A DNA stretch of 53,815 nt from Bacteroidales bacterium (lineage in GTDB: Bacteria > Bacteroidota > Bacteroidia > Bacteroidales > VadinHA17), in assembly GCA_027028505.1 (NCBI GenBank), contig JALVJE010000229.1, forward strand, positions 1 through 53,815. The letters run 5' to 3'. Both the position numbers and the translations under genes were made by a program. Under the pieces are notes generated by a model. The model saw nothing but the letters and a program-made list of their open reading frames with translations. It was not told the DNA's origin and made no database searches. This document shows, one piece after another, positions 19,576 to 52,460 of this stretch. Each line of letters starts with the position of its first letter. The stretch's first letter is position 1.

Positions 19576-19663
19576 TCCCGAAATTGTCGAAATCTTTGAT
19601 TTCGTTACAATTTCGAGGATCCTCGCAGTTCCAACGGGATCGAAGCTCCCGGGAACTGCGGGA
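19576..19663. repeat. Double-hairpin element, copy 1
   Basis: TCCCG-stem-loop-CGAGGATCCTCG-stem-loop-CGGGA inside an AC(C/T)ACNA heptamer array. Confidence 0.8.
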
Positions 19664-19686
19664 CCACTAACCACCTCCCCGGTCGA

Positions 19687-20598
19687 TCATTCAGTAGTAA
19701 GCTCCCGGAACACTTCCTCGAGGCTGCGGCCGGCGAGGGCCAGATTTTTCAGGGTGAGGCCCTGTTCCACGGCCAGGCGGAAGATCTCTTCGCGGATATC
19801 TGTATCGCAGGTGAGGACCCAGGCATGCCCACCGGCGGGGGACACCTCTTTGACATGCTCCAGGTTCCTGAGGAGCTTGTCAGGTACCGCTTCCACAAAC
19901 TCGGTGTGGATGGTACAGAGGCTCTGCTGTTCCCGCAGGTTGACCAGCGACTGCTCGGTCTCGTCGGCGATGATCCTGCCCTTATGGATGATGATCACCC
20001 GGTCGCACACTGCCTCCACCTCCTGCATGATGTGGGTGGAGAGCAGCACCGTCTTTTCGCGGCCCAGCGACCTGATGAGCTCGCGGATCTCTACGATCTG
20101 GTTGGGGTCAAGGCCGGAGGTGGGCTCGTCGAGAATGAGGATGTCGGGATCGTGCAGTAGTGCCTGGGCCAGCCCCACCCGCTGCCGGTATCCTTTCGAG
20201 AGCGAACCGATCTGCTTGTGCTGCTCCGGGCCCAGCCCCGTCAGGCCGATGATCTCTTCCACCCTTTTCTTTTTCTCCCGCCCCAGCTTGTAGATCCCGC
20301 CTACGTAACTCAGGTACTCCCGTACATACATCTCCTGGTACAGGGGGTTGTGTTCGGGAAGGTAGCCGATCATCTTCCGTACCTCCAGCAGGTTGTTGCG
20401 TACCTCCAGACCATTGACCAGCACCTCCCCGGAAGAAGGGGGAAGAAAACCCGTGATGATCTTCATCATGGTAGACTTGCCGGCTCCGTTGGGTCCCAGA
20501 AAACCGGTGACATGCCCCTTCTCCACGGAAAAGGAGACCCGGTCCAGAGCTTTCTGCTCACCGTACCATTTTGTTATGTTCCTTGCGGTTATTGACAT
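19687..20598 (-). CDS. gldA: GldA-like ABC transporter ATP-binding protein
   Basis: GPNGAGKST, LSKGYRQRVGLAQA, LILDEPTSGLDPNQ, STH; N-terminus MSITARNITKWYGEQKAL resembles Bacteroidota GldA. Confidence 0.75.
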   Translation of the reverse strand: MSITARNITKWYGEQKALDRVSFSVEKGHVTGFLGPNGAGKSTMMKIITGFLPPSSGEVLVNGLEVRNNLLEVRKMIGYLPEHNPLYQEMYVREYLSYVGGIYKLGREKKKRVEEIIGLTGLGPEQHKQIGSLSKGYRQRVGLAQALLHDPDILILDEPTSGLDPNQIVEIRELIRSLGREKTVLLSTHIMQEVEAVCDRVIIIHKGRIIADETEQSLVNLREQQSLCTIHTEFVEAVPDKLLRNLEHVKEVSPAGGHAWVLTCDTDIREEIFRLAVEQGLTLKNLALAGRSLEEVFRELTTE

Positions 20599-20957
20599 GG
20601 AAAGGTGCTTGAGATCCTTGATCGTTCAGCAATGAAAAGCGCTTGCGATTTTCAATTGCTGATTTTGGGTTTAAAGTTAATAAATAATTGAAGGAAAAGC
20701 CCTGTTTTTCCCTCTTGCGGATATACCCGGGAATCCATCCACTATGATCAAAAAAACTTGTCCTTTCATGCAACAAAAGGGAGGTTTTTTCGTCATATAA
20801 ATGAAAGCAGTAGGTTTTGCGGGTTTATGAATAGGTTAACACCAAAAGGGAACTGAAAGGTTCCCTTTTCTTTTTTGTATTTTTATGCCGGCGTAGGGGA
20901 AGAGAAGGGTGGATATTTGAAAGGACGGATAACTGTAATCTCATAAAACCGGATGTT

Positions 20958-22403
20958 ATGAGTTTCACTTTACTGGGTTTTCTCATTTATCTGTTGCTGG
21001 TCCTGCTGGTAGGTTTTATAACCTATCATTCCAACAAGTCCCATGAAGATTTTTTCATTGCGGGCCGCAAGCTCAACCCCTGGGTGGTTGCATTTTCCGA
21101 GCGGGCCTCGGGCGAATCGGCCTGGTTGCTGGTAGGGTTGCCGGGAGCGGCCCTGGCGGCCGGATTCCTGCATGTGTGGACGGCCCTGGGGTGTGTGCTC
21201 GGCATTATTTTCTACTGGTTCGTGATCGCCAAAGATCTGCGGGTGCAGTCGGAGAATTTCGGGGCCATCACCCTGCCCAACTTTTTTTCGGAAAAACTGG
21301 GCGAAGGCGGAAATATGATCCGTCTTTTCTCCTCGCTCATCATCGTTTTCTTTTTCACCTTTTATCTGGCGGCCCAGTTCAATGGCGCCGGCAAGGTGTT
21401 ATTCGTCACTTTTGGTATCCCGCAGTTCTGGGGTATCGTCCTGGGGGCCGTTGTGATCATCTTCTACACCATGATGGGCGGATTTTTTGCCGTAGCCTGG
21501 ACCGACTTCATCCAGGGGATCATCATGATCGGCACGCTGGTGATCCTGCCGGTGATCGGGCTGATCGAGATCGGTGAGACGGGTCACTCTCTGCGGGAGG
21601 CTGTTCATCTCGCCGGGCCTCACTATGCCAGCCTCACAGGAGGAGCCACGGGGCTGGCAGCCGTGAGCGTGGTGATCGGAGGTCTCAGCTGGTTCTTCGG
21701 ATATATGGGGCAGCCGCATCTGCTCACCCGGTTCATGGCCATAAAGGACAGTGAAAAGATCAAAGTGAGCCGCCGCATAGCCATCGCCTGGGCCATACCG
21801 GCCTTTACAGGCGCGTTCCTCATCGGACTGGTGGGCCTGGCCATGTTCGGCGAAGGGCATTTCCAGGATGTCGAGCAGGTAATGCCGGCACTGGCCAACG
21901 ACTTCCTGCCGGCCTGGCTGGCAGGGATCTTTATCTCCGGTGCCATCGCCGCCATGATGTCCACTGCCGACAGCCAGCTGCTGGTCATCACCTCGTCGGT
22001 GATAGAGGACTTTTATCACCAGACCCTCAAAAAAGACCTCTCCAACCGGAAAATGCTCTTCCTCAGCCGTGTGATCACGGTGGCCGTGGGACTTCTTGCC
22101 TTTGTCATTGCCGTCACCTCCACCAAGCTGGTGTTCGGACTGGTATCCTATGCCTGGTCAGGCCTGGGGGCATCCTTCGGACCGGCGTTACTGTTGTTGC
22201 TGAAATGGAAGAAAACCAACTGGCAGGGCGTGCTGGCCGGGATGATCACCGGAACGTTCACCACTATCATCTGGTCGGAGATCACCGTACTCGACCAGGC
22301 GGTATCCGTACGCTTCGTCTCTTTTGTCCTGGCCTTCCTGGCCATCATCGTCGTGAGCCTGGCTACCGGAAAGAAAAATAAATCTTTGGTCCGGAACCCA
22401 TGA
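20958..22403 (+). CDS. putP: Sodium/proline symporter (SSS family)
   Basis: About 13 hydrophobic segments; SAWLLVGLPG, WTDFIQG, GYMGQPH, AAMMSTADSQLL, AWSGLGASFGP. Confidence 0.88.
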   Translation: MSFTLLGFLIYLLLVLLVGFITYHSNKSHEDFFIAGRKLNPWVVAFSERASGESAWLLVGLPGAALAAGFLHVWTALGCVLGIIFYWFVIAKDLRVQSENFGAITLPNFFSEKLGEGGNMIRLFSSLIIVFFFTFYLAAQFNGAGKVLFVTFGIPQFWGIVLGAVVIIFYTMMGGFFAVAWTDFIQGIIMIGTLVILPVIGLIEIGETGHSLREAVHLAGPHYASLTGGATGLAAVSVVIGGLSWFFGYMGQPHLLTRFMAIKDSEKIKVSRRIAIAWAIPAFTGAFLIGLVGLAMFGEGHFQDVEQVMPALANDFLPAWLAGIFISGAIAAMMSTADSQLLVITSSVIEDFYHQTLKKDLSNRKMLFLSRVITVAVGLLAFVIAVTSTKLVFGLVSYAWSGLGASFGPALLLLLKWKKTNWQGVLAGMITGTFTTIIWSEITVLDQAVSVRFVSFVLAFLAIIVVSLATGKKNKSLVRNP

Positions 22404-25306
22404 AAAAAGTCGCATACATCTTAACCTTGCTGCTGTTGGTACCTGTCACAGGCCGGGGCCAGAACTGGAAAGCCCTGAAGCAGCAGTTGCTGGACAAGGC
22501 GAAGAAAGAGGCCGTTCACATTGCCAAAAGGAGCGCAAAGGTGCTGGAGGATTCCCTGCGTGCCCGCATTGTCCGGTGGAGTGAGTCGTATGATCCGGCC
22601 GAACTGAACTATGCCGTCTCTTTCAGTGACAATTCCGGTTTCTACGAGGCCGAGGACAAATTTGAGACCTACAAGCGCTCGATCATCGGCTTTGCCGCCC
22701 GGCCGGGGACGGTGGACGAGAAGATCGATGACCGGCTGGAAAAAATGGACCCGGACGACTACAACCGCACGGGCGAGCTGTTGTATGCCACGGGGCATTA
22801 CCAGGGGGCACAGAACGCTTTTCTCACGGCCCTCCTTTTGTTGCAAAAGGAGGGAAAGGAAAATACGGAGAAATATGCCCTGGTACAGAGCAACCTGGGA
22901 TTGCTTTTCCAGACCACCGGCCGGTATTATGAGGCGGAAGAGATGAACAGCCGCGCCCTGGACCTCCGGGAAGAGCTGAAAGATCCCGGCCCCCTGGGAG
23001 CTTCCTGCAATAACATGGGCGTGCTGTACAAGGAGACAGCGCGTTATGCCGCTGCCGACAGCCTGCTGAACAAAGCCCTGACTCTGACTGCCGGCTCCCG
23101 GGGGAAGAACTCGACCGCCTATGCCGTGATCCTGAACAACCTGGCGGTGCTCAACCAGCAACTGGGGAAATATGAGAAAGCGGAAAAACTGATGGACCAG
23201 GCCCTGGCAGTGGCGCAGGAGAACATCGGAAGTAAGTCGCCCAATTTCGTCCGGATGAAGGTCAACCTGGCCATGCTGTACGAGGCTCAGGGGAAAAGGG
23301 AGGAGGCCGAGAAGATCTTCCTGGAGGCCATGGCTGTCAAGAGAAGGCGGCTCGGGGCGAAACATCCCGACTATGCGGTCATGGAACAGAACCTGGCCGG
23401 GCTATACCTGGCCAACGGGCAGTATGACAAGGTGGAGGACCTCCTGAAAAGCGCCCTGAAGATCTTTGACAAAAAATTCGGCACCTCCCATCCCTCTTAT
23501 GCCGGGGCGCTGGCCGACCTGGGACGGTACCATCTGTTTATGGAACAGCCGGAGAAAGCCCGTCCCGAGATCGACAAGGCATACGCTGTTCTGGAGGAGA
23601 GCCTGCCGGAACACCATCCGCGGCTGGCCGCCCTGCAGGAGGCCCGGGCCATCCTGGAATGGGAAGAAGGGAATTACGAAAAGGCTTTTGAAGGGTACCG
23701 AAACGTCCTGGATGAGTACATTGCCCAGATCGACCGGTATTTCCCGGCGCTCAGCGAATACGGACAGGCTGCTTTCTGGCATACGGTCAGCCCCCGTTTC
23801 GAGCGCTTTTTCAACTTCTCCCTCGAAGCCGGGGATAAAGTGCCGGAGATGCCGGTGGCGTTCTACAATTACCGCATTGCCACCAAAGCCTTGCTGCTCA
23901 ATACCTCCAGCCGTATGCGCAACAGCATCCTGCAGGGGACTGACAAAGAACTGAAAGACCTGTACAGCCGGTGGCTGGACATGAAACAGTACCTGGGGAC
24001 GGTCTATTCGATGACCAATGAAGAGATACAAAAGAACGGCATCAACGTAGATTCGCTGGAAAATGTGACCGAAAACCTGGAGAAAAAGCTGGCAGCCCGC
24101 TCCGGACTCTTCGGCAAAGGCGGGGAAAAAGAGAAGGCCGGTTTTTCGCAGGTACGGCAGAGCCTTGGTGCCGGCGAGGCAGTGGTGGAGCTCGTCCGCC
24201 TGACGGGCTATGATCATTACCGCCGCGATACTACGGTCCGTTACCTGGCCCTGGTGGTGACGAAAGACCGGGACAGGCCGCTGATCGTACCCATACCCGG
24301 AGGCAATGACCTGGAAAGGGAGAAGATCGCCGGCTACCGGCAGGCCATGCAGCAGGCGCGGAAGAAAGTGCCTTTTGCGGATGTTTTCTGGACACCGGTG
24401 GAGGACAGGGTGGGGGACAGGCAGGTCCTTTATATTTCGCCTGACGGCATATACAATTTCGTCAATATCAACACCCTGCAGTTCGATGACGGCTCTTTTG
24501 TCATGGACAAACATGAGATCTCCTATCTGACCAATACGCGGGATATCCTGACCCTGAAACAAAAAAATGCGAAAAGCAGCCGGCATACGGCCGTTCTCGC
24601 CGGCAACCCGCAGTATGACCTGGGACTGGACTGGGACCGGATGAAAGAGATGCCTCTGCCGGCGCTGCCCGCTACGGAGACCGAGGTGAAAAAGGTGAAC
24701 GGTATCCTGAAGACTCATGGCTGGAAGACCACCCTTTACCTGCAGAAGGAGGCGACGGAAGAGCACATACGCCACGTGCGCCGGCCGGAGCTGCTGCACC
24801 TGGCCACCCACGGCTATTTCCTGCCCGATATCCCGCCCTCCACGGAAAAGATCTTCGGCATCGAGCCGCAAAGGGCCGTGGCCAACCCCCTGCTGCGCTC
24901 AGGCCTTTTGTTCACCGGTGCCGACAGGACGATACAGAACCTCGACTCCCTCTCCGCGGAGGGACAGGATGACGGCATCCTCAATGCTTACGAAGCTTCG
25001 ATGATGGACCTGTCCGGAACGGACATGGTGGTGCTAAGCGCCTGTGAGACCGGTCTGGGCGAGGTGCGCAACGGCGAAGGTGTGTACGGTCTGCAGCGCT
25101 CCTTCCAGCTGGCCGGCGCCACCTCGGTGATGATCTCCCTGTGGCAGGTGAGCGATGAGGTGACACAGAAGCTGATGAGCCTTTTCTACAACTACTGGCT
25201 GCAGAGCGGCGACAAACAAAAAGCCTTCCTCCAGGCCCAACGCGCCATCAAGAAAGAATACCCCGCTCCTTTTTTTTGGGGTGCGTTTATTCTGGTAAAT
25301 AAGTAA
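22400..25306 (+). CDS. Exported TPR-repeat CHAT-domain (caspase-like) protease
   Basis: Signal peptide, kinesin-light-chain-type TPRs (HPDYA, NNLA), LHLATHG and VVLSACETG dyad, SLWQVSD, PFFWGAF. ATGA overlap with putP. Confidence 0.9.
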   Translation: MKKVAYILTLLLLVPVTGRGQNWKALKQQLLDKAKKEAVHIAKRSAKVLEDSLRARIVRWSESYDPAELNYAVSFSDNSGFYEAEDKFETYKRSIIGFAARPGTVDEKIDDRLEKMDPDDYNRTGELLYATGHYQGAQNAFLTALLLLQKEGKENTEKYALVQSNLGLLFQTTGRYYEAEEMNSRALDLREELKDPGPLGASCNNMGVLYKETARYAAADSLLNKALTLTAGSRGKNSTAYAVILNNLAVLNQQLGKYEKAEKLMDQALAVAQENIGSKSPNFVRMKVNLAMLYEAQGKREEAEKIFLEAMAVKRRRLGAKHPDYAVMEQNLAGLYLANGQYDKVEDLLKSALKIFDKKFGTSHPSYAGALADLGRYHLFMEQPEKARPEIDKAYAVLEESLPEHHPRLAALQEARAILEWEEGNYEKAFEGYRNVLDEYIAQIDRYFPALSEYGQAAFWHTVSPRFERFFNFSLEAGDKVPEMPVAFYNYRIATKALLLNTSSRMRNSILQGTDKELKDLYSRWLDMKQYLGTVYSMTNEEIQKNGINVDSLENVTENLEKKLAARSGLFGKGGEKEKAGFSQVRQSLGAGEAVVELVRLTGYDHYRRDTTVRYLALVVTKDRDRPLIVPIPGGNDLEREKIAGYRQAMQQARKKVPFADVFWTPVEDRVGDRQVLYISPDGIYNFVNINTLQFDDGSFVMDKHEISYLTNTRDILTLKQKNAKSSRHTAVLAGNPQYDLGLDWDRMKEMPLPALPATETEVKKVNGILKTHGWKTTLYLQKEATEEHIRHVRRPELLHLATHGYFLPDIPPSTEKIFGIEPQRAVANPLLRSGLLFTGADRTIQNLDSLSAEGQDDGILNAYEASMMDLSGTDMVVLSACETGLGEVRNGEGVYGLQRSFQLAGATSVMISLWQVSDEVTQKLMSLFYNYWLQSGDKQKAFLQAQRAIKKEYPAPFFWGAFILVNK

Positions 25307-25332
25307 AGACCGGGAGGGTGAAGTACTTGGAG

Positions 25333-25404
25333 TCCCGAAAAATCAAAGATTTTTCGAGGATCCTCGAAAAACTACGCAAATCTTAGATTTGCTGTTTTTC
25401 GGGA
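25333..25404. repeat. Double-hairpin element, copy 2
   Basis: TCCCG-AAAAATC/GATTTTT-CGAGGATCCTCG-stem-loop-CGGGA. Confidence 0.8.
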
Positions 25405-25456
25405 TGCCTAAAGTTAAAAATTGGTAGCTAAGGACTCTTCAATCATTCACTCATTC

Positions 25457-25513
25457 CCCGTCCGAACGGACGTTCGTCCCTGCCCGAATGGCTCGGTCAG
25501 GCGGGCGGGCGGG
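25457..25513. repeat. CCCGTCCG-type REP-like hairpin with nested CCTGCCCG hairpin
   Basis: CCCGTCCGAACGGACGTTCGTC|CCTGCCCGAATGGCTCGGTCAGGCGGG|CGGGCGGG inside a TCATTCAM octamer array. Confidence 0.7.
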
Positions 25514-25656
25514 AATCATTCACGCATTCCTCCCCCAGCACCCCCTCTCATCATCTCATCATCGTCCCTTTACTCTACGCTCTCCGCTCTGCTCATCTCT
25601 CACCTCTCACCTCTCATCACTCTGCGCTCTGTGCCCTGCGCCCCCTGCCTAACACC

Positions 25657-25712
25657 CCCGTCCGACTGGCGTCAGCCCTGCCCGAATGAATTCGTTCAGG
25701 CGGACGGGCGGG
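25657..25712. repeat. Second nested CCCGTCCG/CCTGCCCG hairpin
   Basis: CCCGTCCGACTGGCGTCAGC|CCTGCCCGAATGAATTCGTTCAGGCGGA|CGGGCGGG. Confidence 0.7.
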
Positions 25713-25751
25713 CAGTACCTTCCAGAAGTTTGGAGTACTTAGAGAGTGGAG

Positions 25752-25818
25752 TCCCGCAACTCATGAAATCTTCGATTTCACATGAGTTGCGAGGATGCTC
25801 GCAAATTGATTTGCGGTA
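25752..25818. repeat. Double-hairpin element, copy 3
   Basis: TCCCG-CAACTCATG/CATGAGTTG-CGAGGATGCTCG-CAAAT/ATTTG-CGGTA. Confidence 0.8.
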
Positions 25819-26000
25819 TGTGGAGTTGTTATTCGCATCCTGCCTGCCGGCAGGCGGGTATCGCATCATCTCATCATCGTCCCTTTACTCTACGCTCTCC
25901 GCTCTGCTCATCTCTCACCTCTCACCTCTCACCTCTCACCTCTCATTACTCATTACTCTGCGCTCTGTGCTCTGTGCTCTGCGCTCTGTGCCCTGCGCCC

Positions 26001-27569
26001 TCACTCCGCCCTCTCCAGCCCATCCTCCGTCATCACCCAGCACTTTCCGGCCATATCATAGACAGGGATGTATTTTCCGGTAGGGATGTAGTCGAGCAAG
26101 TAACGCAGTTTTTCGTCCAGGCAGATCACGGTGCCTACCGGCAGGCGAAGACGATAATCCAATTGCTGGCCATACCAGATCTTTCCGGCAGAGAACCAGG
26201 GATGCAGGAGAAGGGTGTGTGAATTGAGGAAACTCAGGTTGGCGGAGATCTTTTCAGCTCTTTTGAGGGCTGCTTCGCGGCTGTTCCCATAGGCTTTTTT
26301 GACGATCACCAGCTCTGATTTTTCTGCTCCCGAAGGAACGATATCTATTTCGGGGCGGGCCAGCAGTATGTCTCTCTCCGTATCCCTGTAAATGCCCTTT
26401 TGCCGGAAAGAGATCACTTCCTCGATAGCATCATTGTAGGTAGTAGGGGTTGTAACGAAAAGGGTGTCTCCGGCTGAAATATCGAGGGAGGTTGTTTCGG
26501 TGAGGCGGGCATGCCTGGAATAATTGGATGCAATGTCAACGATGAAAAGGCCCAGGCTCACGGCGCTGATCAGCCAGATGACAAAAAATACCACCCCGGC
26601 AATGCGGTTGCTGGCACGGATGTTGAAAATGAGCCTTACGCCGGCATATACGAGGGCCAGAAGAGGAATGCCCAGCGTAAGGACCAGACTGCCGAGGATA
26701 TAGGGAACGTTCTCGGGCCGGGTGAAAATGGCCAGGGCTTCCCGTAGATCAAAGAAAGAGGCTACCTGTATAGGAGGGGTGAGATAGCTGAAATGAAAGA
26801 AGAAAGTCCCCAACAGGGCAATCAGAATGATCAGCCCCGCGAGTACGAAAGCTATACCGATCAGGATCCCGAGGATCTTCAATCCGACCAGCAATATCTC
26901 TCCGATCACCCGCACGAACTCCTGCAGGGCGTTGCGCGAACGGCGGTACCCATCGCTCTCCGGAATGGTTTTCAGGTTGTTTTTTACCTTGTGAAATTCC
27001 TGGCTGATGTTCTTGCTGATGTTGCTGAGGTTGACCGGCTGTCCTGTCATCTCCAGGCGTTGCGCAGCCGTCTTTGCTTCGGGGATGATCAGCCACATCA
27101 GGAGATATATCAGGATAGAAGAGCCATACAAGAGGGTCAGCACGATGAAAGCCACCCTGAACCACACGGGGTCGACATTGAAATAAACGCCCAGGCCTCC
27201 GCACACCCCGCCCAGCACAGCATTGTCAGGATCGCGGAAAAGACGTTTGCGTGTTTCCGTACCTGCCGGTGGTCCCTCCGGCGCTGAAGAGAACTCCTCA
27301 CCACCGGCATCAATGATATCCTCCGGCCGGCCCAGCAGGGAGATCACCGCTGTCACATCCTCTCGGGTGACCACCTCGCGTTTTCCGCCCAGGCGGTCGT
27401 TAAAGATCTCAGCGATACGAGTTTCGATGTCCTGGATGATCTCCTCATGCTCCTCCTGTGAGGCCAGGCGGTTGCCAATTTCTTCAAGATAGCGGGAGAG
27501 CTCGGCATAAGCATCTTCATCCATGAAGAAGACGCTGCCCTGCAGACTTATTTTGATCGTTTTTTTCAT
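26001..27569 (-). CDS. Long PspC-domain membrane protein
   Basis: Start moved to MKKTIKI (ATG 27569). DIETRIAEIF, RLFRDPDNAVLGGVCGGLG (PspC), several TM segments and a C-terminal soluble domain. Confidence 0.88.
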   Translation of the reverse strand: MKKTIKISLQGSVFFMDEDAYAELSRYLEEIGNRLASQEEHEEIIQDIETRIAEIFNDRLGGKREVVTREDVTAVISLLGRPEDIIDAGGEEFSSAPEGPPAGTETRKRLFRDPDNAVLGGVCGGLGVYFNVDPVWFRVAFIVLTLLYGSSILIYLLMWLIIPEAKTAAQRLEMTGQPVNLSNISKNISQEFHKVKNNLKTIPESDGYRRSRNALQEFVRVIGEILLVGLKILGILIGIAFVLAGLIILIALLGTFFFHFSYLTPPIQVASFFDLREALAIFTRPENVPYILGSLVLTLGIPLLALVYAGVRLIFNIRASNRIAGVVFFVIWLISAVSLGLFIVDIASNYSRHARLTETTSLDISAGDTLFVTTPTTYNDAIEEVISFRQKGIYRDTERDILLARPEIDIVPSGAEKSELVIVKKAYGNSREAALKRAEKISANLSFLNSHTLLLHPWFSAGKIWYGQQLDYRLRLPVGTVICLDEKLRYLLDYIPTGKYIPVYDMAGKCWVMTEDGLERAE

Positions 27570-27580
27570 CCCGGTAAGTT

Positions 27581-27919: not shown

Positions 27920-27948
27920 GATCTTTCTTTTTCATGTTGATACAATGA

Positions 27949-28518: not shown

Positions 28519-28556
28519 TTTTAAAATATGTGGTTATAGCATTGTAATCTCCATTG

Positions 28557-30977: not shown

Positions 30978-30993
30978 GGTCAGAGTTCAGAGT

Positions 30994-31108: not shown

Positions 31109-31247
31109 TCGCTCTCGTTGTTCATCCTTCATCCTTCCAAAAATACGTTTTTGATCCGCAGGATGATGAAATATTTTTGGAAATATCGTTTTCCGGGCGT
31201 AGATTTGCAAACTATCTCAAATATTCTTTTGGATAAAAGGGTGTTTG

Positions 31248-31356
31248 ATTTATTAAGAAGAGGGGAGAGATTAGGCTCTGAGAACCTCTAGCAACCCCCC
31301 CGGCAAACGGGGAAAGGTGCTAAAACCTAATCCCGGCAGGCCGGGAGATGATAAAT
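31248..31356 (+). ncRNA. SAM-I (S-box) riboswitch
   Basis: P1 ATTTATT/GATAAAT, AAGA, P2 with TTAGG loop able to pair with CCTAA (pseudoknot), GCAACC...GGTGCTAA in P3, P4 TCCCGG/CCGGGA. Upstream of metX-metH-metF; TAGATTTG promoter element at 31200-31207. Confidence 0.9.
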
Positions 31357-31440
31357 TAAACAGGACGATCATGAAAAAATGTTTTCTTTCCCCTGCATAT
31401 CTTTTTCTTTTTTTGCGTGTTTCTATACGCTGACGTCGGG

Positions 31441-43359: not shown

Positions 43360-43428
43360 GCCCTGAGTGACTCAAGTATATGTGGAAGATTGCCTGTACC
43401 ACATAAAGATCAAATACTGTGCCAAAAG

Positions 43429-44571: not shown

Positions 44572-44596
44572 GATGATATGAAAACATTAGGGTTTG

Positions 44597-45274: not shown

Positions 45275-45281
45275 GGCCGGC

Positions 45282-46931
45282 CTACTGGTATTTGAAACGC
45301 TTGATGTTTTTCTTGGGCGTGCGCTGGAAATCCTCTTTCATGATCTCCACCTTGTGGATCTGCATGAAGGAGGCCAGCTCTTTGTTGACTTCACGCCGTA
45401 CACCGTCCATCACCTGCGGCAGCTCCTCTTCGGAGATGTTCCGGGCTTTGACCACGTCGGCGTCGGGAAGGATCAGCGCCACGATGCGGTTGTCGCGGTT
45501 TACCGCCAGCGAGTCGGCCACCAGCGGGTGGTTGTTGATCACCGCCTCGATCTCCTCAGGGTAGATGTTCTGCCCAGAGGGCCCCAGGATCATGTTCTTG
45601 CTGCGGCCGCGGATGAAGATGTTCTGCTCCTTGTCCATGGTCCCCAGGTCGCCGGTGTGGAGCCAGCCGTCAGCCTCCAGCACCTGGCGTGTGGCCTCCT
45701 CGTTCTTGTAATATCCCTCCATGACATTGTCGCCGCGTACCAGGATCTCACCGGCTTCGTGTTCGGGATCGGAGGAGTCGATGCGTACCTCCAGCGTGTC
45801 CACCGGCCGGCCGCAGGAAAAAAGCTTGCGGTCGTTCCAGGGAGCATAACTGATCAGCGGACCACATTCGGTCATGCCATAGCCCACTGTGAAAGGAAAG
45901 CGGATCTTGTTGAAGAAAATCTCCGCCTCGGGGTTGAATGCCGCCCCGCCGATGACGATCTCGTGGAAGTTGCCACCGAAAGTCTCCACCAGCTTTTTCC
46001 GGATGGTGTTGTGGAGGATACTTTTGAGACCTGGGATCTTCAGCATCGTTTTCATTGAGGGTTTCTCCAGGGTGGGGAGCAGTTTTTTCTTGTAGATCTT
46101 CTCGATGACCAGCGGTACCGAAAGGATGAGACGGGGTCGTATCTCCGCAAAGGCTTTGGTGATGATCTGCGGCGAAGGCGTTTTGGTCAGGAAGGTGATG
46201 TGACATCCCAGCGTGAAGGGGAAGAGGAACTCAAAGGCACAGCCATAGGCGTGGGCCAGGGGCAGGAAGGAGACGATGCGGTCGCCGGCCTCCAGGGGCA
46301 TGTGATGGTGGGCAAAACGCACATTGGCGGCCAGTGAGTTGTGGGAGAGCATCACCCCCTTGGAGTTGCCGGTCGTTCCGGAGGTGTAGCTGATCACAGC
46401 CAGCTTGTCGTTGGTGATCTCCGGCAGGGCAAAGTCCTCCCGCCGGAACCCTTCGGGGTATTTCTTCTGAAAGAGGTCATCCCAGCCTGTAACGATATCG
46501 CCGGCCTTTGGGTCACGGGCCTCCAGGAGGGCAAAGTCCTCCACGCCGATCACTGCCCGGATGGCCGGGAAGGTCGCGGGATCGAGCGGCTCGTAAAGCG
46601 ACTTTTCGGAAAACAGCAGAACAGAATCGGAATGGGCGATGAGGTTCTGTACGTCCGAAGGCCGGAAATCGGGAAGCAGGGGGACGATGACAGCCCCGTA
46701 GGTGACGGTGGCCAGGTAGATCACTCCCCAGTGGACCGAGTTCTTGCCCAGCAGGGCGATCTTGTCCCCTTCGCGGATGCCGGTCTCCCGGTAAAGAAGA
46801 TGGATGCGGGCGATCAGGGTGGCGATCTCACGGTAGGTAAAATCGTCTCCCTGGTAATTGGAAAGGGCTTTGATGTCCCATCCTTTTTCGATGCCGTTGC
46901 GGATAAAACCTGTGAGTGTTTCTTTGATCAT
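45282..46931 (-). CDS. Long-chain fatty acid-CoA ligase (AMP-binding)
   Basis: YTSGTTGNSKG, GYGMTE, WLHTGD, GQNIYPEEIE. Confidence 0.92.
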   Translation of the reverse strand: MIKETLTGFIRNGIEKGWDIKALSNYQGDDFTYREIATLIARIHLLYRETGIREGDKIALLGKNSVHWGVIYLATVTYGAVIVPLLPDFRPSDVQNLIAHSDSVLLFSEKSLYEPLDPATFPAIRAVIGVEDFALLEARDPKAGDIVTGWDDLFQKKYPEGFRREDFALPEITNDKLAVISYTSGTTGNSKGVMLSHNSLAANVRFAHHHMPLEAGDRIVSFLPLAHAYGCAFEFLFPFTLGCHITFLTKTPSPQIITKAFAEIRPRLILSVPLVIEKIYKKKLLPTLEKPSMKTMLKIPGLKSILHNTIRKKLVETFGGNFHEIVIGGAAFNPEAEIFFNKIRFPFTVGYGMTECGPLISYAPWNDRKLFSCGRPVDTLEVRIDSSDPEHEAGEILVRGDNVMEGYYKNEEATRQVLEADGWLHTGDLGTMDKEQNIFIRGRSKNMILGPSGQNIYPEEIEAVINNHPLVADSLAVNRDNRIVALILPDADVVKARNISEEELPQVMDGVRREVNKELASFMQIHKVEIMKEDFQRTPKKNIKRFKYQ

Positions 46932-46958
46932 CTCTTTGGTGTTTTGAGCAGGGCCGGT

Positions 46959-47357
46959 CTATCCGTACAGAGTCCGTATATTGCTCCATAACAGGATATA
47001 AAATCCGGCGGTTAACAGGTGAAAAATAGTAAAAAAATAGTTGTAAACCGACCGTTTCCTGCGGATCTTCCTGCGGGCCAGCATGACCGCCGAGGGCAGC
47101 ACAAGGGTGACGAGCAGGAGCAGGGAAAGGGTGTTGGTGAAAAAGTCCTCCAGGGAATGCGGGTAAAAAGCCAGAAAATAGAGAAAGGCAAAGAGGACGA
47201 GCAGATAAAGCAGGTAGCTTATTTTCAGTAAAAGGTAAGAGGTCTTGTGACGGCGGTGGGGCAGGTAAGGACGCAGCAGCACCCCCGCCAGAAAAAAAAC
47301 AAGGGCCTCGCCCGCGATCATCAGGACCCTCAGGAAGATATGCGTACCGGTAGCCAT
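46959..47357 (-). CDS. Hypothetical membrane protein (4 TM segments)
   Basis: 132 aa with four hydrophobic segments separated by basic loops; co-oriented just upstream of the ligase. Confidence 0.65.
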   Translation of the reverse strand: MATGTHIFLRVLMIAGEALVFFLAGVLLRPYLPHRRHKTSYLLLKISYLLYLLVLFAFLYFLAFYPHSLEDFFTNTLSLLLLVTLVLPSAVMLARRKIRRKRSVYNYFFTIFHLLTAGFYILLWSNIRTLYG

Positions 47358-47431
47358 AAGCCGGAAGGATTGATCACACCAAGATACGAAAAATTAGGAT
47401 TGGGAAATAGTGCTTGAATGCGTGAATGATT

Positions 47432-47459
47432 CCCGTCCGGCCAAGACCGTTCGGACGGG
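47432..47459. repeat. CCCGTCCG-type REP-like hairpin
   Basis: CCCGTCCG...CGGACGGG inside a GAATGATT octamer array. Confidence 0.75.
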
Positions 47460-47510
47460 GAATGATTGAAACGGTGCTCCATTCAATCTTTAAACTTTTC
47501 TTTAAAATCT

Positions 47511-47566
47511 ACCTATTTAAATAGGTATTTTAATAGGTAATTAAATAGGTTTTTAAATACCTATTT
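47511..47566. repeat. 12-bp periodic AT-rich repeat
   Basis: ACCTATTTAAAT AGGTATTTTAAT AGGTAATTAAAT AGGTTTTTAAAT ACCTATTT; includes the perfect palindrome ACCTATTTAAATAGGT. Confidence 0.7.
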
Positions 47567-47775
47567 TTGGAGTTGTTGCTTTTAAGTCTTTTTCCCCTTT
47601 TTGATTTCCTTCTTTGCGTCCGTTGCGGGAAACTTTGCGGCCTCTGCGTGAAGCCTCTCATTCAGAAATCAGCAATCAAAAATCAGAATTCAAAATTCAT
47701 CATTCCCTGCTGTCAGGCATTATACCACTGATCCATATTCCCTTTATAAAATTAGTCTGGAAACCCGATAGGTGA

Positions 47776-48759
47776 TCAGACTCCGTCCTTATGGTTTTCC
47801 TTGTGGTTCCATACCAGGGCGCTGGCGCCCAGCACGGCAGCATTCTGGGTATTGAGTTTGGAGGGGAGGAGCTTGACCTTCCCGCGGTAGATGGACAACA
47901 GGTTCTGCTCCATGTGGCGGCGCGTGGGCTCAAAGATCAGATCGCCGGAGAGGGTGAGTCCCCCGAACAGAAAGATCGCCTCGGGGTTGGTGTGGGCCAC
48001 CACATCGGCCAGCTTGTATCCGAGCATCTTGCCAGTATGTTCAAAAGCGGCCAGTGCCACCTTGTCCCCTTTTTTGGCTGCGGCGCTGATGTCGGCGGCT
48101 GTGAGCTCGTTGAAGCTCATATCGCGCAGTTCGCTCTCGTCGATCATGTCTCCCAGCAGCTTGAAGACGGTCCGCTTGATGCCGGTGGCCGACACATAGG
48201 TCTCCAGACAGCCTTTTCGTCCGCACGCACACTGCCGGTTGCTCTCGCCGGGACGGATGGAGGTGTGACCTATTTCGCCGGCAAAGCCGTCGGCGCCGTA
48301 CAGCAGCTCACCGTTCACAACAAATCCGCTGCCCAGGCCTGTGCCCAGGGTGATGACCACAAAGTTCTTCATCCCTTTGGCGCCGCCGTAGATCATCTCT
48401 CCGATGGCGGCAGCGTTGGCGTCATTGGTGACGATGATCGGCAGATCGGTGTATTCCCTGAAAAGATCTGCAAGGGGAATGATGCCCTTCCACGGCAGAT
48501 CGGCCGCATATTCTATGGTGCCTTTGTTGATGTTGCCCATGGGGGCTCCTATACCGATTCCTTCGACATGGACCTTCTCGTTCAGCGATCGCAGGGCCAG
48601 CCGTACCTTTTCGTTGAGAGCGGCCAGGAAAACCTCTATCTCCCCGTAATCGCGCGTTTTCATCTTCCCTTCGGCCAGAAATTTCCCCTGCTTGTCCACA
48701 ATGCCGAACACAGTATTGGTTCCCCCGATATCTATTCCGATAGCTACATTTTTTTTCAT
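47776..48759 (-). CDS. ROK family sugar kinase
   Basis: GIDIGGT, NDANAAA, TLGTGLG, EIGH, CACGRKGCLE. Own TATCTTTG at 48793-48800. Confidence 0.93.
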   Translation of the reverse strand: MKKNVAIGIDIGGTNTVFGIVDKQGKFLAEGKMKTRDYGEIEVFLAALNEKVRLALRSLNEKVHVEGIGIGAPMGNINKGTIEYAADLPWKGIIPLADLFREYTDLPIIVTNDANAAAIGEMIYGGAKGMKNFVVITLGTGLGSGFVVNGELLYGADGFAGEIGHTSIRPGESNRQCACGRKGCLETYVSATGIKRTVFKLLGDMIDESELRDMSFNELTAADISAAAKKGDKVALAAFEHTGKMLGYKLADVVAHTNPEAIFLFGGLTLSGDLIFEPTRRHMEQNLLSIYRGKVKLLPSKLNTQNAAVLGASALVWNHKENHKDGV

Positions 48760-48847
48760 CGATCGTAAAATTGGTGTCTGCGTTTATGTACGCAAAGATA
48801 GGTATTTTGTTACCCCTGTGTGGTATTCACGACCTTCGTGGGAATAG

Positions 48848-48879
48848 AAAAAAAAACCCGGGATCGTTCCCGGGTTTTT
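48848..48879 (-). terminator. Intrinsic (possibly bidirectional) terminator after the SIS gene
   Basis: AAAAACCCGGGA/TCCCGGGTTTTT hairpin with A and T tails. Confidence 0.8.
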
Positions 48880-48900
48880 CATGGTATAAAAGGCTGGGAA

Positions 48901-49917
48901 TTACTCTCCTGTATATTCATTGCCCACTTTCCGGGCGCGCTCCGGCTTGTCCAGGTTGATGTCCAGGGCGAGGCCTGTCTCCACCAGCACGTTCCAGCCG
49001 GCTGCCAGTTCCACGTAATCCTTGTATTCACCGCCGTCGGGGATGAGGATGGTGGGGAAGCTGGTCTGGCGGTGGGAGATGGCTACGATGGTGAGACCAA
49101 CGCCTTTCTCCAGCACCTCATGGAATTTCTCCTCTTCGCTCTCAAAGGGATCCACCACGATCACCACCTCATCGGGGTTCATCACCTCTTCGATGCCATG
49201 AGCGGCGTAGGTACCTTCGAGGAAGTCGGATTTCTTGCGGGTGATCTCGTTGGTCTTCAGGGTCAGCTCCTCTGCCACTCCGGTGTTGCGGCCGGCGAAG
49301 TAGATCATCCCTGCGTTTTTGATCTTTTCGGTGAGCGAGTCATCCACTTTCAGGGTCATGGCTTCCTCCACCATACCGGCCAGTTCGTCCAGTCCCTGCA
49401 TGCTCTTGCCGGTGAGGTGCCGGTAGAGACTGTCATAGAAAAGGCCCTGCTCGATGACCGACTTGGTCGCTGCCACAGCATCTTCCTTGCCGCAGCCCAG
49501 CACGTGGGTGTCCAGGGCCAGCTCCTGCAGCGGGGTGTCGTGGTTGGCCGTCAGTCCGAAATAGGCGGTATGTCCGGCTTCTTTCAGATGTTTGAAAAGA
49601 CGGACCACCTCCTTGGTCTTGCCCGAGTTGGAGGCGCCGAACACGGCCAGGTCGGTGAGATCATACTCCAAGGCCTGCGTAGCACCTTCGGTGAAAAGAG
49701 GGAAGCGTTTGCTATCCTTCAGTGAATCGTAGATAGCGCGTTTGGCGGGGAAGATACGGCTGCTGCCCTCACCCGTCATGAACAGCCCTTTCTTGCTGCG
49801 AATGGCGTGGGCAAAACGCTCGGCGACGGCAGGATCGAAACGGCGGATCACATCCGCGGTCTCCATCATCTCCCGCACCAAAGCGTACTTTGAGTATTTC
49901 TTGTCATTGAGATCCAT
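48901..49917 (-). CDS. Double-SIS sugar-phosphate isomerase/deaminase (GlmS isomerase-like, no glutaminase domain)
   Basis: GEGSS, SNSGKT, EDAVAATKS, EELTLKTNEI, HG, LDKPERARKV parallel the GlmS C-terminal motifs. Confidence 0.82.
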   Translation of the reverse strand: MDLNDKKYSKYALVREMMETADVIRRFDPAVAERFAHAIRSKKGLFMTGEGSSRIFPAKRAIYDSLKDSKRFPLFTEGATQALEYDLTDLAVFGASNSGKTKEVVRLFKHLKEAGHTAYFGLTANHDTPLQELALDTHVLGCGKEDAVAATKSVIEQGLFYDSLYRHLTGKSMQGLDELAGMVEEAMTLKVDDSLTEKIKNAGMIYFAGRNTGVAEELTLKTNEITRKKSDFLEGTYAAHGIEEVMNPDEVVIVVDPFESEEEKFHEVLEKGVGLTIVAISHRQTSFPTILIPDGGEYKDYVELAAGWNVLVETGLALDINLDKPERARKVGNEYTGE

Positions 49918-49925
49918 GGTCGTAT

Positions 49926-50693
49926 TTATTTAAGTTTGATAAAGTCTTTCAGTTCTTCCTGGATGAGCGGATCTTTCTGGAAGCCGCCTCCCAGATGCTG
50001 CCAGAACACTTCGGCATACGGCACGTTCACCATGCTGCCGTAGTTGACATTGTTCTTCTTCATCTCCCCAAAGAAATCGTCCATCTTGTGCATGTGGCGC
50101 ATCAGGTCCATCTGCGACTGATGGTGGGAGAGCATGTCCATCTTGGTGTCCATCACAGAGGTGATGTCCACGAAGAAATGAGGCGGAGCGATCTGGTTGC
50201 CGAGGGGGTCGGAGAGGGTGAGGGGAGCTGAATGATAAAGCAGGGGAGTGATCTCTACCGGCTCTTCGTCCAGCGGCACGTTGGGCAGTGACGATATCAT
50301 AGCTGCCGACTCCACGATGTTGCAGGTGGTGCGGTGGTCACTGTGGTAATCCATCGGCAGATGGGTGATGACGATGCCGGCCCGCACCTGGCGGATCAGC
50401 GCAATGGTCTTGAGGCGCATCTCGGTGGTATCGAACAGGAAGCCGTCGCGGCCGTCCAGACAGTAGTACTCGGCATCCAGGATGGCAGCGGCCTTGCGGG
50501 CCTCCTCCTTGCGCATGGCGATGGTCTTCTCCTCGGTGGAGTTGATGCCGCCCATGCCGCCGGCGGTCATGGTGGCGATCACGATCTTGTATCCTTTGTC
50601 CTTCAGGAGTTTCAGGGTGCCGGCGCAGAACGCTTCGGTATCATCCGGATGAGCGTGGAGAGAAAGGACGGTTTTGTTGAATGTGTGTTCCAT
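49926..50693 (-). CDS. PIG-L/LmbE family deacetylase
   Basis: AHPDD, RKEEA, YHSDH, HQSQ. Confidence 0.9.
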   Translation of the reverse strand: MEHTFNKTVLSLHAHPDDTEAFCAGTLKLLKDKGYKIVIATMTAGGMGGINSTEEKTIAMRKEEARKAAAILDAEYYCLDGRDGFLFDTTEMRLKTIALIRQVRAGIVITHLPMDYHSDHRTTCNIVESAAMISSLPNVPLDEEPVEITPLLYHSAPLTLSDPLGNQIAPPHFFVDITSVMDTKMDMLSHHQSQMDLMRHMHKMDDFFGEMKKNNVNYGSMVNVPYAEVFWQHLGGGFQKDPLIQEELKDFIKLK

Positions 50694-50751
50694 GGTAATT
50701 CGTTTTTAAAGTTTTAAGTCATTTTGTATTTATTCTCTTCCCTGAAAAGAT

Positions 50752-51954
50752 TCAGGGCTTGACCCGGATGGGTTGCAGCCGCACAAATTCCGGCAACGGG
50801 CCGGAAAGAGGCCTCATGTATTCCAGGAATTTCTCACTGACAAAATTGCCTTCCTTGTTGAAGTAGTCCAGCGGCATCGGTTTGGCTTTCACGGCCACGT
50901 CGTTGAGGGGTACCTGTCCGTATTCGATGGTATAGGGATCGTTGGAGACCCGCTTCATGGCGACCATCATGCCGCTGACACCGTCACGGGCCAGTTCCAC
51001 GGCTTTCACCCCACAGCGGTAAGCCTCTTCGATATCCTGCTCCAGGGCCCGGTCTTCGGCCGACATGATCAGCGATTCGGTGATCTGGAACTCGCCCCGG
51101 AAGCCGAACTTGTCGGAGATCATCCGGTGCAGGTTCATGGCCACGCTGGTGCCACCCATGGCGCCGAACTCTACGTTGGAGAATTTGTCCTTTACGCGTG
51201 AGGCGCTCACCGGCGTACCGTCGGCATACTTGATCCCCTCGCCGCAGACAATAGAGACCCAGCCGTACTTTTTATAAACGGTGTCCACATCGTCGAGGAA
51301 TTTTTCCTTGTCAAAATCGAACTCGGGGGCATAGATCAGATGAGGCGCATCGTCTTCAGCCTTTTTGGCCATGGCAGTGGAGGCGGCCAGCCATCCTGCA
51401 TCCCGGCCGATGGTCTGGTAGATGACGAACTGGTCGACGCGTTGCATGTCACGTGCCAGGAATCCGGACTGCATCACGTTGAGGATATTGGAGTGTGCTG
51501 CCGAAGCGAATCCCGGCGTGTGGTCGGTGCCGAAGAGGTCGTTGTCCACGGTCTTGGGGATCCCCACGCCGATCATCTCATAACCGGCCTTGCGGCAGTA
51601 CTGTTCGACCCGGTTGATCGTGTCCATGGTGTCGTTGCCGCCGATAAGGAAAAAGTACCGGATATCATACTTTTTCAGTACTTCCAGGATGCGGGGGAAA
51701 TCCTCATCCTGTACCTTGTGACGGGACGATCCCAGCGCTGACGAAGGAGTGTGCTTCAGCCCTTCAATGATCTCTTTGGGCTGTTTTCCCAGATCAATGA
51801 TCTCTTCCTGCATGAACCCTTCAATGCCGAAGTTCATGCCGTAAACGTTCTTTATGGAGGAGGTCCGCAATGCCTCTTCTATCACGCCTGCCAGCGAAGC
51901 GTTGATGACGGCTGTGGGGCCTCCCGACTGTCCTATGATCGCATTTCCGCTCAT
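50752..51954 (-). CDS. PfkA-family phosphofructokinase, probably PPi-dependent
   Basis: QSGGPT, GGNDT (Asp at the donor-specificity position), PKTVDND, TIGRDAGWL. TATTTTTG at 52001-52008. Confidence 0.88.
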   Translation of the reverse strand: MSGNAIIGQSGGPTAVINASLAGVIEEALRTSSIKNVYGMNFGIEGFMQEEIIDLGKQPKEIIEGLKHTPSSALGSSRHKVQDEDFPRILEVLKKYDIRYFFLIGGNDTMDTINRVEQYCRKAGYEMIGVGIPKTVDNDLFGTDHTPGFASAAHSNILNVMQSGFLARDMQRVDQFVIYQTIGRDAGWLAASTAMAKKAEDDAPHLIYAPEFDFDKEKFLDDVDTVYKKYGWVSIVCGEGIKYADGTPVSASRVKDKFSNVEFGAMGGTSVAMNLHRMISDKFGFRGEFQITESLIMSAEDRALEQDIEEAYRCGVKAVELARDGVSGMMVAMKRVSNDPYTIEYGQVPLNDVAVKAKPMPLDYFNKEGNFVSEKFLEYMRPLSGPLPEFVRLQPIRVKP

Positions 51955-52041
51955 ATTTTCCTGCTTTTTAAAATAACAATTAGTTCAAAACAAATCGAAC
52001 CAAAAATAGTAAAAAAATATGAGAATACAAAACACTTTGTT

Positions 52042-52124
52042 CAAGAGCCAAGATACAAGATACAAGAGCCATGAACTACCAACTATGAACTGAGAACTAT
52101 GAATCCCCAACTCGTAACTCCACA
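52042..52124. repeat. Degenerate heptamer array
   Basis: CAAGAGC CAAGATA CAAGATA CAAGAGC CATGAAC TACCAAC TATGAAC TGAGAAC and further units. Confidence 0.75.
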
Positions 52125-52356
52125 TGCCGCAAATGCTGCTAGTGATATGTCAACCAGAATATGACGCACCCATTGTACCCTTAACCCCCACGCGCCCCCT
52201 CGGTCCCCTAAAGGGGAAGTCCACCCACAATTCAATAGAAAGTGTGGGCAAGGGTTCCCCCTTCAGGGGGCCAGGGGGGCGGGCAGGACAAGCTTGATAA
52301 TTCCTTGTTTTATGGTTGACATGATATTAGCATTTGCGAGCCTGCCGGCAGGCAGG
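52125..52356. mobile_element. MITE-like composite: expanded hairpin unit enclosing the GC-rich REP doublet (copy 2), abutted by a CCTGCC REP
   Basis: Imperfect inverted ends CGCAAATGCT..ATGTCAACCA (52128-52156) and TGGTTGACAT..AGCATTTGCG (52313-52338). Begins TGCCG and ends CGAG like the double-hairpin units. No coding capacity. Confidence 0.55.
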
Positions 52357-52383
52357 TAGGCACTACGAACTACGAACTACGAA

Positions 52384-52460
52384 TGCCGAAATTGTTGTGC
52401 ACAACAATTTCGAGCATGCTCGCAACTCTAATGAGATCGGAGATCTCAAGAGTTGCGGCA
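52384..52460. repeat. Double-hairpin element, copy 4
   Basis: TGCCG-AAATTGTTGTG/CACAACAATTT-CGAGCATGCTCG-CAACTCT/AGAGTTG-CGGCA inside an ACTACGA array. Confidence 0.8.

Follow-up and report, generated by a model that had tools for sequence, protein, structure and literature searches.

What are the short paired hairpins that interrupt the intergenic tandem repeats of a 53,815-nt stretch of DNA from a Bacteroidales bacterium, and how do they come to be there? The stretch (contig JALVJE010000229.1 of assembly GCA_027028505.1), referred to here as the window, belongs to a genome of 3.38 Mb in 275 contigs (G000). An initial annotation of the window had described four elements of this kind, at 19576-19663, 25333-25404, 25752-25818 and 52384-52460, as pairs of inverted hairpin units set precisely into short repeats, and had matched them to no named family. 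All four are present with that anatomy, and the observation is confirmed as real and far above chance. The elements form a real, mobile family that is akin to the REP (repetitive extragenic palindromic) repeats of Proteobacteria and the SDR repeats of Nostocaceae, and they are probably very small non-autonomous mobile DNAs that are moved as folded hairpins by an enzyme encoded elsewhere.

Each element is composed of two abutting units. Form A reads T-S-C-C-G, an arm, an inner hairpin, the complementary arm and C-G-A-G-S'-A, form B is its reverse complement, and the joint between the two is a 12-base core, CGAGSA|TSCTCG. The foot of the unit is a fixed 5-bp stem (T-S-C followed by C-G) with one bulged A, whilst below the arms most units contain a 2-base bulge and an innermost mini-palindrome of the form xxATC-NNN-GATxx. 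Units span 23-50 nt and doubles 50-110 nt. The core, CGAGSATSCTCG, occurs four times in the window against a mean of 0.07 in shuffled sequence, and none of 100 shuffles reaches four. Folded as single-stranded DNA (ssDNA), elements 1 to 4 have energies of -30.5, -22.4, -21.5 and -29.3 kcal/mol and z-scores of -8.0, -7.1, -6.2 and -8.1, with 0/200 shuffles as stable. The minimum-energy fold of element 2 is a competing, alternative long hairpin, and its centroid is poorly defined.

None of the units is assigned to a strand. Unit A of element 1 (19576..19619) consists of TCCCG, the arm AAATTGT, the inner hairpin CGAAATC-TTT-GATTTCG, a 2-nt bulge TT, the complementary arm and CG-A-GGA, and its unit B (19620..19663) of TCC-T-CG, the arm CAGTTCC, a 2-nt bulge AA, an inner hairpin, the complementary arm and CGGGA. 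Element 2 joins a unit A with the short arm AAAAATC-AAA-GATTTTT (25333..25360) to a unit B with the arm AAAAAC, a bulge and the inner hairpin CAAATC-TTA-GATTTG (25361..25404). In element 3, unit A (25752..25795) has the arm CAACTCA and the inner hairpin GAAATC-TTC-GATTTC, and unit B (25796..25818) is the small CAAAT-TG-ATTTG form, the 3' foot of which is CGGTA, a mutated CGGSA. Element 4 is formed of TGCCG, the arm AAATTGTTGTGCACAACAATTT and CG-A-GCA in unit A (52384..52416), followed by TGC-T-CG, the arm CAACTCT, the bulge AA, the inner hairpin TGAGATC-GGA-GATCTCA and CGGCA in unit B (52417..52460). Both units of elements 1 and 4 and unit A of element 3 are supported by sequence and fold, both units of element 2 and unit B of element 3 by sequence, and elements 2 and 4 also by exact empty sites in a sister species.

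The window copies, which the initial annotation described as a family, have many counterparts, with 81 occurrences of the core in the genome against one for a reversed-pattern control. A scan for the grammar of the units returned 237 of them, compared with 11 in the reversed genome, and these fall into 78 A-B doubles, no B-A doubles, 73 apparent singles and eight minimal units that are nested within CAAA^TTTG loops. On inspection several of the singles are chance matches within coding sequence, and others prove to be doubles whose centre is split or mutated. A scan for split centres gave 31 cases; six are artefacts of neighbouring elements, and in each of the remaining 25 a GC-rich palindrome breaks a double at exactly TS^CTCG. 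The palindromes are of the CCCGCCCGG...CGGACGGG type in 22 cases and of the CCTRCCTGC(C)GGCAGGCAGG type in three. In total, the family comprises about a hundred elements in this genome.

It is the shape of the unit that is conserved and not its sequence. Arm-pair statistics were computed by script over 125 distinct units, in which the foot TSCCG...CGAGSA and the bulged A are both found in 125/125 and the foot pairs are invariant except for S/S', which is C-G in 80 units and G-C in 45. Watson-Crick pairs are formed at 816/846 of the first seven arm positions, compared with a fraction of 0.587 (maximum 0.645) when the 5' arm of one unit is set against the 3' arm of another. Arm positions a1 and a3-a7 use three to four pair types, and a2 is A-T in 124/125 units. 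The arms stay complementary as their sequence changes, and the pairing at 816/846 positions while sequences vary supports the proposal of a non-autonomous family that is set by shape. The same behaviour had been recognised within the window, where the closing stems are indeed TCC/GGA in copies 1 and 2, TGC/GCA in copy 4 and one of each in copy 3, and where the arms CGAAATTGT, CGCAACTC and CGCAAAT are reused in different slots. Genome-wide there are 34 left-by-right arm combinations, indicating that the halves reassort.

The letters at the feet also bear on how the two units are folded relative to each other. In 77 doubles with flanks the four S positions (S1 to S4) read GC|CG in 37, CG|CG in 27, CG|GC in 10 and GC|GC in three. 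S1 and S2, and likewise S3 and S4, are complementary in 77/77; the scan required this pairing, yet 78/81 cores passed it. S1 and S4 are complementary in only 30/77, which favours two separate hairpins over an outer stem. This is a first point of difference from a REPIN, where the two REPs pair into one long hairpin, whereas here each unit folds on itself.

Mobility is indicated by comparison with G001, a sister species and the closest relative compared, whose flanking genes are 92-95% identical. At locus 4, G001 reads ..ACTACGAA^CTATGAACTAAC.. and element 4 is inserted between the same letters in G000. At locus 2, G001 reads ...CTTGGAG^TGCCTAAAG..., a site that is filled by element 2 in G000. 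The reverse case is also found, with a G001 site (L046) filled between TGTGGAG units and its G000 counterpart (C137) empty; three TGTGGAG units are present on both alleles, and this equal count argues against slippage between flanking repeats. There are hence three exact presence/absence differences between the two genomes, with target duplication in none, which fits the proposal that elements are precisely gained or lost without it; the comparison of orthologous regions that had been recommended for this purpose reveals empty sites at elements 2 and 4. Element 1 is preceded by a heptamer-type array on the plus strand (19553..19575) that ends in A (..ACCACGA ACTACAA A^), and the corresponding array of G001 is longer and element-free. 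More distant relatives in the genus have short element-free spacers at loci 1 and 4, making gain in G000 the parsimonious reading.

The target of the elements is sharply defined. The junction, described initially as always A^C or its complement G^T, is A^C in 70/77 doubles with enough flank, so the junctions are far from random in the larger set, but the rule is not absolute, the others being GC (4), AT (1), CC (1) and AA (1). When all 77 elements are turned to A^C, position -7 is C in 68/77, position -1 is A in 72/77, position +1 is C in 75/77, position +2 is a pyrimidine in 76/77 and position +8 is C in 65/77, from which the site can be identified as the boundary between heptamer units of the form C-Y-N-N-N-M-A. 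Neighbouring A^CA and A^CG sites are nearly unused, with 35 CACA and 16 NACG (CACG, TACG) within 14 bases and one element at A^CA. Twelve elements have period-7 flanks to left and right; for these, 6.25/7 positions match across the junction after exact excision, compared with 1.1-1.6 at shifts 1-3, and shift 0 is the single best heptamer phase in 12/12. Deletion of an element was said to restore the flanking repeat, and this is seen directly for elements 2 and 4 in the empty sites of G001 and statistically in the 12/12 period-7 cases, with an ambiguity of at most one base at the element boundary, as claimed. For element 4 the array to the left is made of ACTACGA heptamers (52362..52383, plus strand) and, from sequence and phase analysis, the phase resumes at 52461 (CTATGAA).

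The orientation of the elements at this target is not arbitrary. Of the arms that begin CAACTC, CAATTC or CAGTTC, 52 lie on the C side and one lies on the A side. The description of an element as two inverted units is correct as to the arrangement, but the units are used asymmetrically, since the arms drawn on by left units differ, relative to the target, from those of right units. In this genus the junction rule takes the form A^C (70/77 in G000 and 8/9 in G001), and outside the genus it weakens to a G before or a C after the element. Beyond G000, 82/86 distinct elements have G before and/or C after, 24 of them both and 58 just one; four have neither. Since empty sites already have the G, it is part of the target.

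How might such an element move? A short target on one strand, fixed orientation, the absence of duplication, hairpins with unpaired bases and landing in loops together suggest an HUH-like logic operating on ssDNA. The element would be recognised as a folded hairpin, most simply on ssDNA, with cuts made after the flanking G and after the element's own terminal A. It would then be pasted by an enzyme encoded elsewhere, which may be an HUH-type or other strand-specific nuclease or recombinase, and recombination at the conserved core could shuffle the halves. A use to the host, as bidirectional hairpins downstream of stop codons for instance, would come second to this. IS200/IS605 elements end in hairpins that have an unpaired base and are in direct orientation; they insert on one strand just 3' of a short target, in a fixed orientation and with no duplication of the target. 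The present family resembles them in its insertion next to a short specific site, its fixed orientation and its lack of target duplication at three exact empty sites. It differs in that the hairpins are inverted and abutting and in having a single G as its target (A^CY in the genus), and no tnpA parent was found. The mechanism of IS608 is among the topics discussed in PMC3116915.

Recognition by shape has a second precedent in the integron. Integron integrases read folded single strands with extrahelical bases and cut at an AAC/GTT triplet, and the core boxes of attC sites are RYYYAAC / GTTRRRY. By analogy, an integron-type tyrosine recombinase could be moving the elements as attC-like sites or empty cassettes, since they share with attC a conserved folded shape of variable sequence, conserved unpaired bases and, in this genus, an A^C / G^T crossover. 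The remainder of the anatomy makes this extremely improbable. There are no R''/L''/L'/R' boxes, the ends being TSCCG/CGGSA; each element is two separate hairpins and not one bulged hairpin; gene cassettes are absent between copies, with no cassette ORF; the boundaries are unambiguous to within one base and involve no shared triplet; and outside the genus the junction is N^C.

A further candidate for the mobilising enzyme is a Y1 (HUH) transposase. The genome has two intact Y1 genes of 151 codons each, together with one weak match. The genes are at C165:545-886 (region 527-979) and C75:10540-10887 (region 10447-10899) and carry the motifs NH[VI]H, WQ and Y[IV][EK]NQ..HH, which, as far as sequence motifs can tell, resemble those of subclass 1.2 of Quentin et al. 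2018 (PMC6006769). That work reports subclass 1.2 chiefly from Cyanobacteria and Bacteroidetes, with no partner structure known, and 'atypical secondary structures' around Bacteroidetes subclass 2.6 genes. The initial annotation had proposed a search for transposase genes flanked by the same units, and this test fails: both Y1 genes are flanked by their own clusters of different GC-rich REP-like hairpins, and there is no unit on C165 or near the C75 gene. RAYT adjacency was rejected on account of these other repeats, and co-occurrence of Y1 genes proved a weak and non-specific link to the elements across relatives, with Y1 genes in 14/16 other families of the order that lack the elements. The four-helix-bundle family PF05635 (23S-IVS) was also rejected as a partner; it is found in 22/24 family genomes and in 13/16 other families of the order, and therefore does not discriminate carriers. 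No coding partner lies within the copies or next to them. None of the 73 singles was seen to form a separated A...B pair around a gene, and the search gave no full-length parent element.

These results bear on whether the family is simply an ordinary REP/REPIN system, with the units as REPs, the doublet as a REPIN and the genome's own Y1 (RAYT-like) transposase moving them on ssDNA. The likeness to the REP/BIME/REPIN-RAYT systems of Proteobacteria, to the extent that these are covered in PMC3116915, PMC3733652 and PMC6006769, is considerable, in that both are short, imperfect intergenic palindromes of high copy number that occur in inverted doublets (here 78 A-B against 0 B-A), are non-autonomous and vary in copy number between relatives. 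Bulged stems, too, are known in some REP classes according to these accounts. Precise gain and loss without target duplication and the presence of two intact Y1 genes with subclass 1.2-like motifs would also be expected. We nevertheless regard it as unlikely. The GTAG or CGTC tag that defines two REP super-families in the account of PMC3733652 is not at the stem foot, which is TSCCG/CGGSA instead; the units are not mutually paired; and no cognate Y1 gene is flanked by the same repeats. Moreover, the Y1 genes track the elements poorly, as none was found in the family carriers G006, G013 and G017 (5, 2 and 4 cores) nor in G043-G045 (4, 17 and 24 cores). In addition, the modular arms can be exchanged on a foot of 5 bp and a core of 12 bp that are both fixed, and this scaffold crosses phyla.

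Movement of a folded hairpin by an enzyme acting in trans, the reading we prefer, also has a number of observations against it. Searches so far name no enzyme for the movement. Y1 genes are found in 11/14 family genomes with at least two elements versus 6/11 with none or one (the Pfam model pools subclasses and the genomes are incomplete), and a search of five further carriers found none in G043, G044 and G045, which have 4, 17 and 24 cores and may be incomplete genomes. Insertion and precise excision are separable by parsimony alone, and neither a circle junction nor another transposition intermediate was seen. One copy shared between G000 (C158:1233-1299) and G001 (L058) is identical at 67/67 positions while the flanking 440 bases are 90-92% identical, which could reflect selection, conversion or recent replacement or movement alike. 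Logan contigs of two other runs, X2 and X3, skip element 2 (25333->25408), one with 11 other letters there, but the shortness of Logan contigs, and their breaking at repeats, make this weak evidence; in the comparison as a whole, stretches without cover and most joints were uninformative. The flank heptamer type is associated with the arm type (0/2000 permutations reach the observed value, a result that overstates because the copies are kin), and this association could possibly come from spread together with the flanks or from gene conversion. Finally, the orientation of elements relative to local GC skew is only a trend (32:18, p = 0.065) and is not significant.

Some of these points would be accommodated if there were no dedicated enzyme at all, and the hairpins spread and vanished by host replication and recombination in unstable arrays, through template switching, gene conversion from array to array, or slippage promoted by the hairpins. 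The elements do lie in fast-evolving heptamer arrays, with spacers that are very different even between sister species; arm type is associated with flank heptamer type; a copy is identical between species despite diverged flanks, as conversion would give; halves reassort at a 12-bp identical core; and the copies associated with tRNA genes, described below, lie in tandem partial duplications. Such an origin is nonetheless rather improbable in our view. Presence and absence are exact, with an equal heptamer number on both alleles where slippage would remove one. The scaffold is also found away from heptamer arrays and in other phyla, where the G rule is one-sided, and insertion in the loops of other copies and at one fixed site in the core points to site recognition.

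The location of the elements relative to genes raises a different issue, namely whether they are functional RNA or protein-binding signals, such as bidirectional terminators or mRNA-stabilising hairpins, that are held by selection and are only incidentally mobile. Each of the four window copies is either within ~10-30 bases of a stop codon or in a convergent spacer. Strong conservation of the fold, an orthologous copy that has changed less than its flanks, and a two-fold symmetry that would serve both directions are in keeping with such a signal. Across the genome, on the basis of crude open reading frame (ORF) calls, 65/78 doubles are in spacers between ORFs, eight overlap an ORF and five are without a flanking ORF on one side; the spacers are tandem in 37 cases, convergent in 18 and divergent in 10, and the median distance to the nearest stop is 105 bases. 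There is no orientation bias relative to the gene whose 3' end faces the element (19:19 and 16:16). At gathering thresholds Rfam matches only two SAM riboswitches in the window and no element, and at E up to 10 it adds only weak microRNA/snoRNA hairpin look-alikes that are far below thresholds. The lack of orientation bias, the mixed spacer types and the lack of an Rfam match fit selfish DNA better than an oriented RNA signal. Moreover, no T-run follows the hairpins of the four window copies, ten copies are in divergent spacers, loci that are otherwise conserved have a copy in one sister species and not in the other, relatives carry anywhere from 0 to 81 copies, and copies nest in one another. 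A selected signal is a very improbable explanation of the family.

The scaffold extends well beyond the genus. The core is present in 17/24 other genomes of the same family (maximum 19) and, as a single copy in each case, in 2/16 other families of the order. Of 300 genomes sampled from the phylum, 12 have four or more cores, with a maximum of 12, whereas a control pattern reaches two. A scan of one genome per species listed at least 119 pattern-match loci, and 45 of the 119 matches listed pass a hairpin test, with 26 from Bacteroidota, 15 from Patescibacteria, three from metagenome-assembled genomes (MAGs) labelled Gammaproteobacteria and one from Marinamargulisbacteria. Among the matches listed, the Bacteroidota that pass are records labelled Bacteroidales, Rikenellaceae, Lentimicrobiaceae, Flavobacteriales and Lewinellaceae, the Patescibacteria that pass are Saccharibacteria, Yanofskybacteria and Parcubacteria, and those that fail are mostly chance matches in GC-rich genomes. 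A 0.5-Mb Saccharibacteria assembly has 17 cores and a Bacteroidota MAG has 24. Outside G000 the arms differ, and foot and core are identical everywhere; in genomes of the candidate phyla radiation (CPR) the arms begin AT and nested TCCCGA...TCGGGA hairpins recur. Carriage by phages was considered and rejected, as the hairpin test is passed by 0/23 pattern matches in viral contigs.

A recurrent landing site outside the heptamer arrays is associated with tRNA genes. At six loci in five genomes an element is located in the D-arm/D-loop DNA of a partial 5' tRNA copy, with an intact tRNA just downstream (none was called at L208). In G000 (C261:11561-12010) three tandem copies of tRNA positions 1-40, each with a 25-base spacer, precede a tRNA-Val gene, and the element is in the first of these. 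The others involve tRNA-Asn and tRNA-Arg-TCT in G024 (L070, L071), tRNA-Arg-TCT in G042 (L195), where a simple TCCCG...CGGGA hairpin also replaces the anticodon arm of the pseudo-copy, a tandem array in G041 (L208) with a tRNA-like 5' fragment that resembles the Arg-TCT one of G042, part of the stretch being masked/N, and tRNA-Asp in the Margulisbacteria genome G043 (L209). The insertion points are CAG^TTGG, TTGG^ATAG, TTGG^TTTAG and GTAG^CTCAG, all after a G, and their differences indicate that at least some are independent events. We read these copies as insertions into redundant tRNA copies at a favoured site. A tRNA intron was rejected as an alternative, since with ARAGORN at five loci an intact tRNA adjoins the interrupted fragment and removal of the element yields no new tRNA.

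Taken across phyla, these observations allow a more far-reaching and tentative proposal, for which the chances are doubtful. The elements may constitute a structure-defined hairpin transposon family of Bacteroidota, Patescibacteria and Margulisbacteria, in which a non-RAYT enzyme acting in trans reads the foot and its bulged base and pastes the element after a G in exposed DNA, such as heptamer arrays, the loops of other copies and the tRNA D-arm. If so, the interchangeable arms would be 'slots' without cargo, and one intergenic mobile system would take in the heptamer arrays, the GC-rich palindromes and the 23S-IVS-family cassettes with heptamer arms.

The failure to match the elements to a named family is borne out to the extent that no described REP class was found to match and there is no Rfam match. 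A description of the two-unit scaffold was not found in the literature searched, although some overlap with the Nostocaceae SDR repeats is possible. The SDR4-6 repeats, along with the STRR heptamers, are said to have been described by Elhai et al. in 2008 (reportedly in Genome Res 18:1484) as tiny mobile hairpin repeats of 21-27 nt that are nested and are located inside heptamer repeats. They are not known to have an enzyme. On that description they are like the present family in being very small hairpins nested in each other and in heptamer arrays, and unlike it in phylum and apparently in sequence and size (21-27 nt as opposed to units of 23-50 nt and doubles of 50-110 nt). As far as the account in PMC5861425 extends, SDR-like repeats are absent outside Nostocaceae among HIP1-enriched cyanobacterial genomes.

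Small palindromic repeats such as REP, BIME and SDR are among the least understood parts of bacterial genomes, and their mover is mostly unknown outside Proteobacteria. The family described here offers a clean grammar of fixed foot, fixed core and swappable arms, together with a sharp target rule, exact empty sites and a cross-phylum spread that includes tiny CPR genomes. With copy numbers of 0 to 81 among relatives, a hunt for the enzyme by phylogenetic profile is practical, as is a biochemical test of shape recognition. The elements also explain assembly breaks and fast spacer turnover in these MAGs, and they mark the D-arm DNA of tRNA genes as a recurrent landing site.

The window contains a number of other repeats, not assigned to a strand, in the neighbourhood of the four elements. 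A fifth, disrupted unit A (52125..52341; TGCCG-CAAATGC ... GCATTTG-CGAGC) was overlooked in the initial annotation; its loop carries an unrelated repeat of ~190 bp that resembles a MITE (miniature inverted-repeat transposable element), and the whole block is missing in G001. The MITE-like repeat is at 52137-52333, with inverted ends at 52140-52155 and 52314-52330. It has 19 other BLAST matches in the genome, one of them at 15737-15836 of the window, and many copies in G001. It was considered as a parent element and rejected, and is taken to be an independent MITE-like repeat because its 19 other matches are in unrelated contexts.

The GC-rich palindromes seen in the split centres represent a second repeat family, which also stands alone in heptamer-like spacers. 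In the window one of these, CCTGCCGGCAGGCAGG (52341..52356), adjoins the disrupted fifth unit. Another (19495..19513) shares the spacer of element 1; G001 and a contig of run X4 have heptamers in its place. A third (25840..25858) is 22 bases to the right of element 3, and further members are found at 25457-25513 and 25657-25712. The spacer between convergent genes at 25421-26000 contains a local duplication, with CTCTCAC/CATCATC heptamer-like runs, GC palindromes and two elements, and is much longer than its G001 counterpart. Elsewhere in the genome an AT-rich palindromic motif (AATAGGTATTTAAATACCTATT-like) recurs near elements, at C98:29531 onward, C75:6480, C184:2170 and C236:26290, and the one in C98 breaks unit B of an element.

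Heptamer-type arrays are also found around other genes. PF05635 genes are bracketed by inverted arrays of this kind at C206:6950-7460 and C236:41560-42360, as well as in five other genomes (L213-L216, L218), and at L213 a double-hairpin element is located inside the upstream heptamer arm. The two riboswitches of the window are a SAM-II at 19317-19375 on the minus strand (68.8 bits), upstream of the gene at 17917-19257, and a SAM-I at 31247-31357 on the plus strand (72.1 bits). Element 1 has the SAM-II leader on one side and the preceding gene's stop codon on the other.

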